Shown here: positions 8,389 through 11,362 of the stretch, piece by piece | Layout: every line of letters begins with the position of its first letter | Position numbering within the stretch: position 1 is the first letter of the stretch | Virus record (IMG/VR): IMGVR_UViG_3300029999_000001 | Coordinates: 67,557 to 100,323 of that record | DNA from: a virus | DNA length: 32,767 bases | Direction: 5' to 3' (one strand) | Notes under the pieces: generated by a model | What the model was told of the DNA's origin: nothing | The model's input: the letters and a program-made list of their open reading frames with translations, nothing else | Databases searched by the model: none | Made by a program: the position numbers and the translations under genes

Positions 8389-8622
8389 ATGAGCGCCGAG
8401 ACGGAGGCACGCCTGACGAGGGCCTCGCGCACCTATGCGCGCCTCAGGCCGCAGTGGCGTGATGCCGTCAGGGAGCTGCACGAGGCGATCATTGCCGAGC
8501 GCCAGGAAGGCGCGAAGATCGAGGACATCACGGCGCGTGTGCCGGTACGGCAGACGCAGGTGAACCGCATCCTCAAGGCGGCCGGACTGGTGGAGGAGCG
8601 GAAAGGCCCGGCTGAGCCCTAG
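8389..8622 (+). CDS. small HTH-like DNA-binding protein, antisense to the operon
   Basis: GAKIEDITARVPVRQTQVNRILK HTH-like segment; high GC3 on plus strand; TGtCATGAT 7 nt before ATG. Confidence 0.65.
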   Translation: MSAETEARLTRASRTYARLRPQWRDAVRELHEAIIAERQEGAKIEDITARVPVRQTQVNRILKAAGLVEERKGPAEP

Positions 8623-8888
8623 CACGCTTCCTCCTCGCCGCGTTCGCACTCCAGTTCACCTACCGGCCCCGCAGAATCCCGTACCTCGAGCCGCCGGACT
8701 TCCCCGTCTTTTTCCAGCAGCAGCACCGAGCATCGTTTCCCTTCGCGGGTGACGACGGCGAGCCCGGCGTACTGTTCTCCTGGTTCCCGCTGCCGGTAGA
8801 GGGCGGCGATGCCGTCGAGCATGGGGTTCCAGAACGCGGGGTCACGGCTGCCGGGCAGGGTGGACCGCGGCCATTCCCGGGTGCTCAC
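8619..8888 (-). CDS. hypothetical protein
   Basis: GTG start overlaps TGA of the stranded MTase tail. Confidence 0.6.
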   Translation of the reverse strand: MSTREWPRSTLPGSRDPAFWNPMLDGIAALYRQREPGEQYAGLAVVTREGKRCSVLLLEKDGEVRRLEVRDSAGPVGELECERGEEEAC

Positions 8889-8978
8889 GCGGCCCCCCGC
8901 GTGGTCATGTCCGCCGCTCGCGCCTCAACTGCCGCGATCCGGCCTGTGATCCACTCCACGACCGGGACCGCCACAGCG
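8885..8978 (-). pseudogene. stranded original 3' end of the C5 MTase (AVAVPVVEWITGRIAAVEARAADMTTRGAA*)
   Basis: 11/18 aa identical to the current MTase motif-X tail; still coupled (GTGA) to the downstream gene. Confidence 0.85.
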
Positions 8979-9623
8979 CACGCTACAGGTAGACTGGAAC
9001 AGTGGAGACATGGAGCGATACTTCCTTTGCCGCTTACCTCGCCGGTTTTACCGATGGAGAGGGCTACATGGACGCACCGCCTCACGGGGGGCTGCGCATC
9101 ATCCTGGCCAACTGTGAACGCGACGTGCTGGAGGCCATCCGGCGGCGGCTTGGCTACGGCGTAATCAGGTCCCAGCAGCAGAAGCCACATTGGCGCGAGC
9201 GCTTCGTCCTCGTAATTTCGAGCGCCGCCGACTGTGAGAGCTTTGCCCGCCTCACATTGCCATACCTGATCATCAAGCGGCGGCCGGCACTTGCCATCCT
9301 GGCCAAGTGCGAGGAATGGCGGAATGTCGTCGCGTCCTATGAAGAGCGAAACCATCTCATCAGGGAAGCCATTGCGGCGGGCGAAGTGCAGAAAGAAATC
9401 GCAGCAAGATTCGGCCTTAGCCAGCAGGCAATCTCGCGCATCAAACTGGGGCACACGTGGCCATCCGAGAAGCCCAAGAGTGCACGTCAAGGCGCCCGTG
9501 GTGCTTCGCTTCGAGGTCGCGTCAGGCAACACTGGTCATCCTCTCCGGGGCGCGGCCTGAATGGCACTGATCGACGGCCACAAGTCGCTGAAGAATCCAC
9601 TCAGCCACAGGAACCGCAATAGC
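8979..9623 (+). mobile_element. free-standing homing endonuclease insertion in C5 MTase motif X
   Basis: Bounded by the two copies of the MTase tail; almost entirely occupied by the HEG ORF. Confidence 0.8.
9002..9622 (+). CDS. single-motif LAGLIDADG homing endonuclease with C-terminal HTH
   Basis: AYLAGFTDGEG motif, LPYLIIKR, HTH GEVQKEIAARFGLSQQAISRIKLGHTW; TAGACT 6 nt before GTG. Confidence 0.88.
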   Translation: METWSDTSFAAYLAGFTDGEGYMDAPPHGGLRIILANCERDVLEAIRRRLGYGVIRSQQQKPHWRERFVLVISSAADCESFARLTLPYLIIKRRPALAILAKCEEWRNVVASYEERNHLIREAIAAGEVQKEIAARFGLSQQAISRIKLGHTWPSEKPKSARQGARGASLRGRVRQHWSSSPGRGLNGTDRRPQVAEESTQPQEPQ

Positions 9624-10808
9624 GTTCCCGCATTGCCGGTACCGGGCCGAGTCGGACTGTTCCGTCCCGTCCGCCTGCCACCGCGTCCAGTCGTCGGGGA
9701 GGCCCATCAAGCGCTCGCACTCAAGCGGGGTGAGCCGGCGGACGGCTGTTGCGGTCTGGACGCCGGTTATGGCGCGGGAGACGGCCATGATTGCGTCGTC
9801 CTTGCCGCCATGACCGGGAGCGCCGTGGTTGGTTCCCCAGGATGCCGTCAGCGTTGGAGCGGTTATCAGATGGCCGCCCGCCGCACCCTCGGCGTCTATC
9901 CGGTGCCCTCGCCGTCCGCCGCCCTGGAGGGTGGAGGCGACGAGCTGGCCGGCCGCGGCCTCGTCGGCGCCGACACGCCACCCTCCGCCCGGCCCGCCGG
10001 TTCCGAGGGTTCCGATCGTGCGAGGTTCTCCAGCGCCCCCTGAAGATCCCCCGGCATCACCCGGCCCCGCCTGGCTGCCCGCCGCAGGATCCCGGTCGCC
10101 GCCCTCGGACTCAAGGAGTACTTCCGCAGGTGCGGCCCGGTCTCCAAGACATCCGGCAATGAAGACACGACCGCGACGCTGGGGGACGCCGAAAAACTGA
10201 GCGTCCAGAACTCGGTAGGCGACCCCATCCCAGCGCTTCCCCACCGCCCCGAGGACGGTACCCATGGCTCCTCCATGGAGTCCCATGCAGCCGCCGGGGC
10301 AGGCGCCGCCTTCGGGAACGTGGGTGACGTGGGCGAGGAAGACACGCTTCCCGTCTCGCTTCTCCCATCGCCCGCATCGAACAGCGCGCCTGTTGTCCAG
10401 GCAGGTTTCGTCTCCGGGACATGAGCAGACGGCCGAGAGCATGCCTGGCACGTTTTCAAATAGGAGCCAGCGTGGACGCAGTTCGTCAGCGAGCCGCATG
10501 AAGTGCCAGAAAAGTCCTGAGCGTGCTCCACCCAGGCCCGCGCGGCGGCCAGCGATGGAGAAGTCCTGGCAGGGTGAGCCCCCGGCGAGGATTCCCCGTC
10601 CGGGAACAAAGCCGGCTGCGATGAGCTGGTCACCGGTGATCTCCGTTACGTCGTTGAACAGGGCTGTGCGGGGGAAGTGGCGGGCGAGCACGCCGCGGCA
10701 ATCGGGGTCGATTTCCACGGCCGCTACGACGTTCACCGCGGCCCGTTCGAGCGCCAGGTCGAAGCCGCCGATGCCGGCGAACAGGGAGACCGCAGTGAGA
10801 TCGCTCAT
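9522..10808 (-). CDS. orphan DNA (cytosine-5)-methyltransferase
   Basis: Motif I SLFAGIGG, IV GSPCQDFS, VI ENVPG, VIII FGVPQRRGRVF, IX RRLTPLECERLMGLP, X QCGNAIAVPV; ATG 10808 overlaps upstream TGA. Confidence 0.95.
   Translation of the reverse strand: MSDLTAVSLFAGIGGFDLALERAAVNVVAAVEIDPDCRGVLARHFPRTALFNDVTEITGDQLIAAGFVPGRGILAGGSPCQDFSIAGRRAGLGGARSGLFWHFMRLADELRPRWLLFENVPGMLSAVCSCPGDETCLDNRRAVRCGRWEKRDGKRVFLAHVTHVPEGGACPGGCMGLHGGAMGTVLGAVGKRWDGVAYRVLDAQFFGVPQRRGRVFIAGCLGDRAAPAEVLLESEGGDRDPAAGSQAGPGDAGGSSGGAGEPRTIGTLGTGGPGGGWRVGADEAAAGQLVASTLQGGGRRGHRIDAEGAAGGHLITAPTLTASWGTNHGAPGHGGKDDAIMAVSRAITGVQTATAVRRLTPLECERLMGLPDDWTRWQADGTEQSDSARYRQCGNAIAVPVAEWILQRLVAVDQCHSGRAPERMTSVA
9896..10633 (-). 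CDS. overlapping +1-frame protein resembling the M.EcoHK31I beta polypeptide N-terminal/central part
   Basis: 245-codon open frame with RWGSAGM...FWTL...PSVAVVSSLPDVLETGPHLRKYSLSPRAATGILRRAARRG..MP..L..AL; similarity recalled from memory, not aligned. Confidence 0.6.
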   Translation of the reverse strand: MTSSSQPALFPDGESSPGAHPARTSPSLAAARAWVEHAQDFSGTSCGSLTNCVHAGSYLKTCQACSRPSAHVPETKPAWTTGALFDAGDGRSETGSVSSSPTSPTFPKAAPAPAAAWDSMEEPWVPSSGRWGSAGMGSPTEFWTLSFSASPSVAVVSSLPDVLETGPHLRKYSLSPRAATGILRRAARRGRVMPGDLQGALENLARSEPSEPAGRAEGGVSAPTRPRPASSSPPPSRAADGEGTG

Positions 10809-11362
10809 GCGGCACGCCCCAGCCGGCTGATGCCCGCCAGTTCCCTGGCGATGACGCCGGACAGCAGCAGGGACGGGCGCCACACGCCCCAATCCTGCCC
10901 GGCAACCGTAAGGGCGTGCCCCATCTGCTGCTGGGCCGGGGTCGGCTTCCCCCGCATCGTCTTGAGCTCGCGCCAGAGGATGCCGCGGGGGCCGATCAGG
11001 ATGTCGTCGGGGACGCCGGGTGTGGTGCCGCGGGAGTTGTAGACGTGGATGCGGAGGACGCCGAGGTCTTTGCAGATGGCCCGGACGTGTTCCTCGAGCT
11101 CGTCCTCGCTCATCGCCGCGGCGAGAGTATGGAACCCAGCAGGGGGACGCGGCTTCCCGTCCACGCCCCCTGCCGGGGCTTGTCCCGCACCCGCAGCTGG
11201 GGGGGTAGCTACAGGTGCGGAAGTCTGACCGGACCCGCCCGGGGGGGCGGACGGGTCCGGCGTGGCCACGTCACCGCGTGAACCTGGACACGCGGGTGAC
11301 ATGGCCGGCCCAGCGGGGGCAACGGGGGCAACCCCGGCCGGGCGGTCTGGGATACGGGTCAT
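10805..11362 (-). CDS. VRR-NUC family nuclease with low-complexity N-terminus
   Basis: MSEDELE...PGVPD...RELKT..GK.T..Q......L......GVWRP. Confidence 0.82.
   Translation of the reverse strand: MTRIPDRPAGVAPVAPAGPAMSPACPGSRGDVATPDPSAPPGGSGQTSAPVATPPAAGAGQAPAGGVDGKPRPPAGFHTLAAAMSEDELEEHVRAICKDLGVLRIHVYNSRGTTPGVPDDILIGPRGILWRELKTMRGKPTPAQQQMGHALTVAGQDWGVWRPSLLLSGVIARELAGISRLGRAA

Follow-up and report, generated by a model that had tools for sequence, protein, structure and literature searches.

A candidate mobile endonuclease cassette in motif X of a phage C5 cytosine methyltransferase gene, with a replacement C-terminus and an open antisense frame

SegF and SegG of phage T4 are free-standing phage endonucleases that spread by intronless homing. 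In fungal mitochondria, mORFs have been found to carry a foreign gene C-terminus, as in atp6, atp9, cox2 and nad3 of Glomus (PMC3630166), and the same paper refers, citing Paquin et al. 1994, to an mORF with a foreign C-terminus in atp6 of Allomyces macrogynus (PMC3630166). Among phages, the methylases of actinophages carry inteins, an in-frame LAGLIDADG domain and, in ShiLan, a 'hidden HNH' insert across which the host frame is free of stop codons (PMC9957025, PMC11855218). In this study, we describe an insert in the gene of a C5 cytosine DNA methyltransferase (C5 methylase) on a stretch of viral DNA of 32,767 nucleotides (nt), positions 67,557 to 100,323 of the 100-kb IMG/VR virus record IMGVR_UViG_3300029999_000001, which is called the window below and is numbered from its first letter. 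We read this insert, with a probability of roughly 0.8, as a mobile homing endonuclease cassette of 646 base pairs (bp) seated in motif X of the phage methylase gene, which would spread by splicing-free home-and-rescue and which has an additional layer, an open reading frame (ORF) antisense to the endonuclease gene that may be translated and is here called the bridge ORF. We found no account of such a phage cassette in the literature that we searched.

The minus strand carries most genes of the window, and the stretch is present in many peat-metagenome runs, with no RNA run among those listed as containing it. The cassette contains, on the plus strand, a -10 element and the endonuclease gene and, on the minus strand, a replacement C-terminus of the methylase with its own stop (Table 1); because the cassette supplies this C-terminus, the methylase stays whole without splicing. 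The insertion separates the GN from the AV codons of methylase motif X.

Table 1. Features in and around the insert (window positions; the dot marks a feature without strand)
Feature	Position	Strand	Remarks
C5 cytosine DNA methyltransferase as now expressed	9522..10808	-	PF00145 E=1.4e-51; stop 9522-9524
Replacement C-terminal tail, in use	9522..9623	-	33 codons (9525-9623) after GN of motif X, plus TGA
Stranded native methylase tail	8885..8977	-	30 codons plus TGA; motif X; BLASTP to C-terminus of L002
Next operon gene, 89 amino acids	8619..8888	-	Without family match; GTG start overlaps TGA of the stranded tail (GTGA 8885-8888)
Homing endonuclease gene, predicted, 206 codons	9002..9622	+	LAGLIDADG core ~8-113, helix-turn-helix (HTH) ~117-156, disordered tail; phrog_5046
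Inserted element, 646 bp	8978..9623	.	GC 0.607 vs 0.681 in flanks
Occupied left junction, 22 bp corresponding to the predicted target	9609..9630	-	6/9 outer pairs palindromic
TAGACT, -10-like hexamer	8990..8995	+	6 nt before the GTG start of the endonuclease
Bridge ORF, 215 codons	8885..9532	-	Codon-aligned antisense frame of the endonuclease gene; no Pfam or PHROGs family match

Membership of the methylase in the C5 class can be read from its motifs I, IV, VI, VIII, IX and X (FAGIGG, PCQ, ENV, QRR, a TP.ECERL block and GN-A-x-x-VPV). Its ORF as listed extends to a TTG at 10892, its homologues begin at the methionine of MSDLTAV, at 10808, and the ATG at that position is probably the start. A first-pass annotation of the window had reported a second copy of the methylase tail stranded downstream, and this copy is present, the two tails sharing 11/18 amino acids (BLASTP E=1e-5) and 33/54 nt. 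The same annotation took the stranded copy, GC-rich and still coupled to the next gene, for the original, and the tail in use for a recoded one, and the comparison bears this out: G or C occupies the third position of 14/18 codons in the stranded tail and of 8/18 in the tail in use, and the GTGA coupling is found at the stranded copy. Uninterrupted methylase alleles ending in a tail of the stranded type, for which a search had been suggested as a check and whose absence would have counted against the cassette, exist in IMG/VR, namely L002/L003 (85% amino acid identity over residues 29-347) and L004 (61%), and in these methylases such a tail closes the gene, its stop overlapping the following start codon as ATGA. 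Compared over 18 codons, the stranded tail has 43/54 nt and 14/18 amino acids in common with L002 vs 35/54 nt and 11/18 amino acids for the tail in use, and the BLASTP match of the stranded tail to the C-terminus of L002 (E=8e-8) extends to a common RGAA-stop ending. Because it is the closer of the two to L002, we take the stranded tail to be the native one, orthologous to the tail of the uninterrupted alleles, and the tail in use is, as judged from these alignments, foreign to the methylase lineage of the window. The closest tail elsewhere to the tail in use (9570-9623) is the stranded tail of another locus, L082 (454-507), with 14/17 amino acids identical, a likeness that hints at the capture of replacement tails from earlier hosts.

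Because the homology of the stranded tail begins at 8977, the insert was placed at 8978-9623; the placement given before stood as to the presence of the stranded tail, and was corrected as to its end (8977, not 8978); the insert is 646 bp long. A GCT common to both tails allows the junction to slide by 3 nt. Contigs from four peat-metagenome runs were compared with the window, and the intervals 8400-9015, 8799-9061 and 9307-9663 are spanned without differences by contigs of other peat-metagenome runs, both junctions being covered; the arrangement is not an assembly artefact. Reading of the methylase through the insert into the old tail was rejected, the frames being different and the new tail having its own stop. 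It is also conceivable that an antisense endonuclease gene is carried here by a group I intron, or by a spliced element of another kind, whose removal would rejoin GN to the stranded tail; mobile introns occur in conserved motifs of phage genes, and the stranded tail retains an intact frame, a stop and its coupling to the next gene. Against this stand the absence of any match to the Rfam intron models at E up to 1 (the sole match being a chance one to snoU83B, E=0.57), the 24 nt outside the endonuclease ORF, which are too few for a ribozyme core, and the well-formed motif X with its own stop that follows GN in every relative and would be needless for an intron, and we regard splicing as very improbable. 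With the endonuclease on the opposite strand and the host frame closed by its own stop, the insert is neither an intron nor an intein by these signs, which agrees with the earlier description of a selfish element that needs neither.

The opposite-strand ORF described before as LAGLIDADG plus HTH is likewise as claimed: its TAG (9620-9622) abuts the junction, and its last 33 sense codons together with the TAG are the antisense of the tail in use, in an overlap of 101 nt. Pfam gave matches to LAGLIDADG_3 and HTH_3, both sub-threshold. A profile built from 12 homologues, which were drawn from a large protein collection, matched I-CreI, I-MsoI and I-CvuI in the PDB at E ~1e-6 over residues 8-113, with the motif LAGFTDGEG (residues 13-21) aligned to LAGFVDGDG of I-CreI. 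D18, G19 and G21 do not vary among these homologues and E20 hardly does, K92, aligned to K98 of I-CreI, is invariant, and there is one LAGLIDADG motif per chain. The AlphaFold2 model has a predicted local distance difference test (pLDDT) value above 90 over residues 1-155 and below 50 over residues 159-196, with the secondary structure H-E-E-H-E-E-H, and its best Foldseek matches are I-CvuI and I-CreI (E ~1e-7, probability 1.00). A homodimer model scored 0.67 vs 0.32 for the best control, with the interface on the LAGLIDADG helix (residues 4-20), 100% contact agreement over three runs and a partner pLDDT of 85; the mark set for this tool was reached by 20/30 proteins solved as one-chain pairs and by 1/23 solved as single chains, and the pass obtained here rests on likeness to solved I-CreI dimers. 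The motif with its acidic residue, the alpha-beta-beta-alpha-beta-beta-alpha core and the single motif with a helix-mediated dimer are thus all predicted as in the I-CreI-like class. According to the models, the product of the insert is a LAGLIDADG endonuclease of the I-CreI type that forms homodimers and ends in an HTH followed by the disordered tail, and its predicted activity is that of the class, site-specific cleavage of a target of ~22 bp with 4-nt 3' overhangs.

The antisense dual coding of the replacement tail had been put forward as a way of carrying the repair sequence. It is real in the window, yet from the alignments and the model we consider it incidental and no design feature, because the C-terminus of the endonuclease is unconserved and predicted to be disordered and the overlap ranges over 4-101 nt in relatives. 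The conserved core stops near residue 177, the tails beyond it vary in length and sequence, and the overlap with the methylase measures 80, 68, 59, 56, 40, 35, 28, 23, 8 and 4 nt in the relatives; in the high-GC window the endonuclease frame simply remains open up to the junction.

An IMG/VR scan with the single endonuclease sequence as query gave no match, whereas alignment-based scans did match and brought in further loci. In the phage collection, a near-identity DNA search found nothing and a protein search found Streptomyces phage Coruscant as the sole match (28% identity), the homologue gene of which is located among tRNA genes with no methylase beside it, and therefore no cultured phage with the cassette is at hand. 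Beyond the window, 12 loci have an endonuclease homologue at the motif-X position (GN/AV) of a C5-methylase 3' end, several loci having been recognised as the same (L084 = L089 = L107, on a contig of a Pyrinomonadaceae metagenome-assembled genome; L090 = L119; L116 = L117). The break point lies always directly after the GN(A) of motif X in the loci compared. The homologue (41-69% identity) is convergent with and overlaps the methylase 3' end in L082, L083, L084, L085, L086, L087, L088, L090, L116 and L118, and it lies on the strand opposite the methylase in the window and in 11/12 further loci (L113/L114 being the exception, and no methylase being seen in L115). Endonuclease homologues beside duplicated motif-X tails, which the first-pass annotation had suggested looking for, were found: a clear stranded second tail just past the endonuclease start is present in the window and in L082, L084, L086, L087, L090, L115, L116 and L118, and the layout in which an in-frame C-terminus is inserted and the native one lies downstream recurs in 8 further loci. 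At L115 the endonuclease homologue is truncated, and the stranded tail alone is seen. The loci span GC contents of 0.46-0.70, and their methylases are ~35-40% identical to one another. The CVNV tails of L084, L085 and L086 group together in an 18-residue identity matrix, which is too noisy to speak on whether tails travel with the endonuclease clade. Such a patchy and site-specific distribution would be the signature of homing, which we infer from the comparison of these loci.

Joining 9624-9630 to 8963-8977 reconstructs an empty site that contains a 22-bp pseudo-palindrome, CGGGAACGC-TGTG-GCGGTCCCG, with 8/9 outer pairs palindromic, a value reached by 127/20000 shuffles (0.6%) over 26 centres. 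Its centre is 4 nt from the GN/A junction, as expected of an I-CreI-like dimer, and we offer it as a candidate target and as a lead only. The occupied site differs from the empty one at 4/22 positions (-1, +2, +8 and +11), two of them in the central four; the proposal that the element destroys its own site by recoding is not upheld by so few differences. A palindrome search in other clades gave no consistent centre.

Putting these elements together, we propose that the enzyme would cut endonuclease-free methylase alleles at the ~22-bp pseudo-palindrome across GN/AV, and that the break would be repaired from the occupied allele, homology being provided on the left by the methylase body and on the right by the stranded native tail. 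Repair would copy the replacement tail and the endonuclease gene into the recipient, whose own tail would end up stranded downstream and whose methylase would be expected to remain active with the new tail, while the occupied allele is perhaps protected from cutting by the 4/22 differences in the target.

The element seems to bring its own expression signals. In the three closest elements a -10-like hexamer lies 6-7 nt ahead of the start codon (TAGACT in the window, TATACT in L082 and TAGACT in L083), and lower-GC relatives have TGGTATAAT, then GGAGG and ATG, ahead of the endonuclease. The position of TAGACT points to a leaderless or near-leaderless endonuclease transcript, and the recurrence of the hexamer at the same spot in L082 and L083 supports the leaderless -10 that had been suggested from the window.

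The bridge ORF was not foreseen. In the window it starts with a GTG at 9532, 8 nt before the methylase stop, and ends at the stop of the stranded tail, in the frame of that tail. Since it is aligned with the codons of the endonuclease, only TTA, CTA and TCA codons of the latter can put stops into it. This codon-aligned antisense frame has 0-2 stops in 12/13 loci, whereas other alternative frames have 1-17 (mostly 4-17). When 12 endonuclease genes were pooled and set against controls matched for TA content (GTA, ATA), NCA codons and two-fold R-ending codons, all three codons were depleted, TTA at 0/26 vs 172/340 (p=3e-8), CTA at 3/135 vs 28/254 (p=1.5e-3) and TCA at 5/90 vs 84/410 (p=4e-4). With the expectation for each locus taken from the use of third-position A (A3) at four-fold sites, informative loci expect 5-8 TTA, CTA or TCA codons per gene and show 0-1, and the P value for depletion runs from <0.0001 to 0.02 in 8 loci. 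The geometry of starts and stops recurs as well: an ATG or GTG stands 1-19 nt upstream of the methylase stop in 8/10 loci, the bridge frame is the frame of the stranded tail in 7/8 loci despite a spacer of variable length, and it is 1 or 2 nt out of the methylase frame in 11/11 loci in which both frames can be placed, the window included. A GTGA or ATGA, in which the bridge stop and the following start codon overlap, is found in the window, L082, L087, L088 and L090, and the start of the next gene lies at -5 and -8 from the bridge stop in L084 and L115, respectively. L118, which was found after the idea of a bridge arose, has all features: an ATG stands 14 nt ahead of the stop, the frame is open for 234 codons, and the next gene begins with an ATG at -8.

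On these counts, dual coding appears to have been selected in the endonuclease gene, the whole antisense frame being kept open. A further step, to which we give slightly less than an even chance, is that the element is translationally transparent: with TTA, CTA and TCA purged, the bridge ORF would take up ribosomes at the new methylase stop and pass them, via the stranded tail, to the next gene at its coupled start. Ribosomes terminating on the methylase would restart on the bridge ORF and be carried to the next gene, so that coupling is preserved and polarity avoided, and with such a relay the element would burden the phage less. If this is true, the stranded tail is a working part and not debris, serving both as 3' homology arm for homing and as landing ramp for translational coupling, and the relay would be a novel means by which a selfish gene conceals its cost, one that may explain other stop-free endonuclease insertions such as that of ShiLan.

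A number of observations speak against the reading proposed here, or against parts of it. The methylase DNA of the window is 83-97% identical to L002 up to about aligned codon 340, and from there to the junction (window 9624-9900, ~90 codons) it diverges, with an indel and 45-80% nt identity; this divergence may reflect a co-conversion tract from a foreign donor, which would make the methylase gene chimeric, or it may come from unrelated recombination. The nearest endonuclease-free allele is just 85% identical, and no joint skipping the element, i.e. no endonuclease-free version of the same phage, was seen in the contigs of the four peat runs. L083, L085 and L088 have a degenerate stranded tail or none, and in L113/L114 the homologue (P0008) lies on the same strand as the motif-X tail of the C5 methylase, so antisense placement is not obligatory. 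The palindrome is strong in the window only, the same centre giving 6/9 in L082 and L004 and 3/9 in L002, and a generic promoter and terminator scan, in which a sigma-70 site requires a -35 hexamer, returned no site. As to the bridge layer, codon depletion is not individually significant in four high-GC or low-A3 loci, the bridge frame of L087 carries 7 stops, and L088 has no restart codon near the methylase stop.

Some of these points would suit a fossil, that is, an ancient local duplication of the methylase 3' end with a domesticated or dead LAGLIDADG-like gene in between, inherited vertically and no longer mobile; the missing endonuclease-free version of the same phage is what it would lead one to expect, as are the relatives with a lost stranded tail or a shortened endonuclease gene (L083, L085, L088 and L115). 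We think this improbable. The identical architecture occurs in methylases that are just 35-40% identical and in DNA of 46-70% GC, it is the stranded tail and not the tail in use that tracks the local methylase lineage, across the family the catalytic motif and the equivalent of I-CreI K98 vary little or not at all, endonuclease ORFs are intact in 12 loci, and the GC content of the element is unlike that of its flanks. Loss and decay at some loci also fit the usual homing cycle.

Alternatively, the cassette is what we take it to be and codon usage, GC content or TpA avoidance has left the antisense frame open as a by-product that is never translated, its start and stop positions being coincidence or inheritance. 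L082, L084, L088 and L112 rarely use A at third positions and expect few such codons (P 0.27-0.54), TTA and CTA are likewise rare in the flanking genes of L084, L086 and the window, the overlap of stop and start at the stranded tail would be inherited from the original gene junction, and L087 and L088 break the pattern. On the other hand, loci with A3 of 0.21-0.35 have 0-1 of the 5-8 codons expected of them, all the matched controls (GTA/ATA, NCA, two-fold R-ending) are significantly higher, and the neighbouring genes in L085 show no shortage of these codons (0.26 and 0.21; P(0)=0.003). Retention of the frame in 7/8 loci, though the spacer from endonuclease start to stranded tail varies, and a start codon no more than 19 nt from the methylase stop in 8/10 loci likewise speak against a by-product, which we consider unlikely, if a good deal less so than the fossil.

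Further observations were made on the methylase and on single loci. A related peat contig (run X16, record 21), compared over window 9613-9663, is the same as the methylase to 9613 and then has a different motif-X tail (…PVIEWIARR…), which from the alignment is another methylase allele in the same community. Within the methylase there is a 245-codon alternative frame on the same strand (window 9896-10633, minus strand), and high GC alone yields many such frames here. In L113:1-720 and L114, P0008 directly follows the methylase tail, no second tail is found within 247 nt downstream and the antisense frame is almost stop-free; the element may here be seen in an intergenic state or in an ancestral one. 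In L088:421-984, where a stranded tail is lacking, the endonuclease gene is flanked by a C5 methylase on one side and an N6/N4 methylase on the other, and the stop of its open antisense frame still overlaps the following start codon as ATGA. The 752-bp contig L112, which carries homologue P0003, has the same ~120 nt at both ends, probably two similar tails collapsed by the assembler, and is uninformative. Set aside from the locus analysis were L120 and L121, which belong to another family, and L091-L102 and L108, in which LAGLIDADG domains (~30% identity) lie in frame in N6/N4-type (DPPY) methylases, right after DPPY (e.g. L092:2162-3517); by sequence, these domains look like the 'second homing endonuclease' of actinophage methylases (PMC9957025).

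If our reading is right, bacteriophages too have splicing-free home-and-rescue homing, so far known mainly from fungal mitochondria, with motif X of C5 methyltransferases as a new target. The relatives define a compact endonuclease family with an I-CreI-type core and an HTH across very different hosts, and the family could supply new small homodimeric meganucleases with a predictable target. The antisense bridge layer was unexpected and is statistically supported; with its predicted function it leads to a testable idea, that a selfish insertion into an operon spares the downstream genes by means of a translatable antisense strand. For annotation, stranded gene ends and long antisense ORFs beside 'HNH/LAGLIDADG' phage genes can mark cassettes and need not be noise.

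Compared with the systems described so far, the cassette is closest to the fungal mORFs (PMC3630166), with which it shares a free-standing LAGLIDADG gene in the 3' part of the host gene, an in-frame inserted C-terminus and the lack of an intron or intein. In both, the native C-terminus downstream is closer to endonuclease-free relatives than the inserted one, at 91-98% vs 64-81% nt identity in the fungi (PMC3630166) and 80% vs 65% here. In the mORFs the two genes lie on one strand, the endonuclease often in phase with the host gene (PMC3630166), whereas here the endonuclease gene is antisense, convergent and overlapping the new tail, and it further differs in its own promoter, its phage host, its DNA methyltransferase target and the open antisense bridge frame. 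Because the genes do not lie on the same strand, we file the cassette as a variant of the fungal mORF type. The ShiLan insert (PMC9957025, PMC11855218) resembles it in being an endonuclease insert at a conserved site of a phage methylase with no recognisable intron or intein, and in a host strand that is free of stops over the insert, with 0-2 stops in 12/13 loci here. There, however, the HNH gene shares the strand of the methylase but not its frame, the methylase frame runs on through the insert, there is no replacement tail and the host is of the N6/N4 type; here the host frame stops at the new tail, and what stays open is an ORF of its own, with a proposed restart, antisense to the LAGLIDADG gene. 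With I-CreI, I-MsoI and I-CvuI the endonuclease shares the single motif of each chain, the conserved acidic residue, the counterpart of K98, the core fold, a predicted motif-helix dimer and a candidate 22-bp pseudo-palindromic target, and it differs from them in an identity of ~18-20%, in the extra C-terminal HTH and in not being intron-encoded, its activity and target being predictions. F-CphI next to psbA (PMC6083498) and SegF and SegG of T4 spread, as is proposed here, by cutting a nearby conserved gene with co-conversion of the flanks, but their genes are intergenic, and the target is neither interrupted nor duplicated at its 3' end, unlike the methylase gene that houses the cassette described here.

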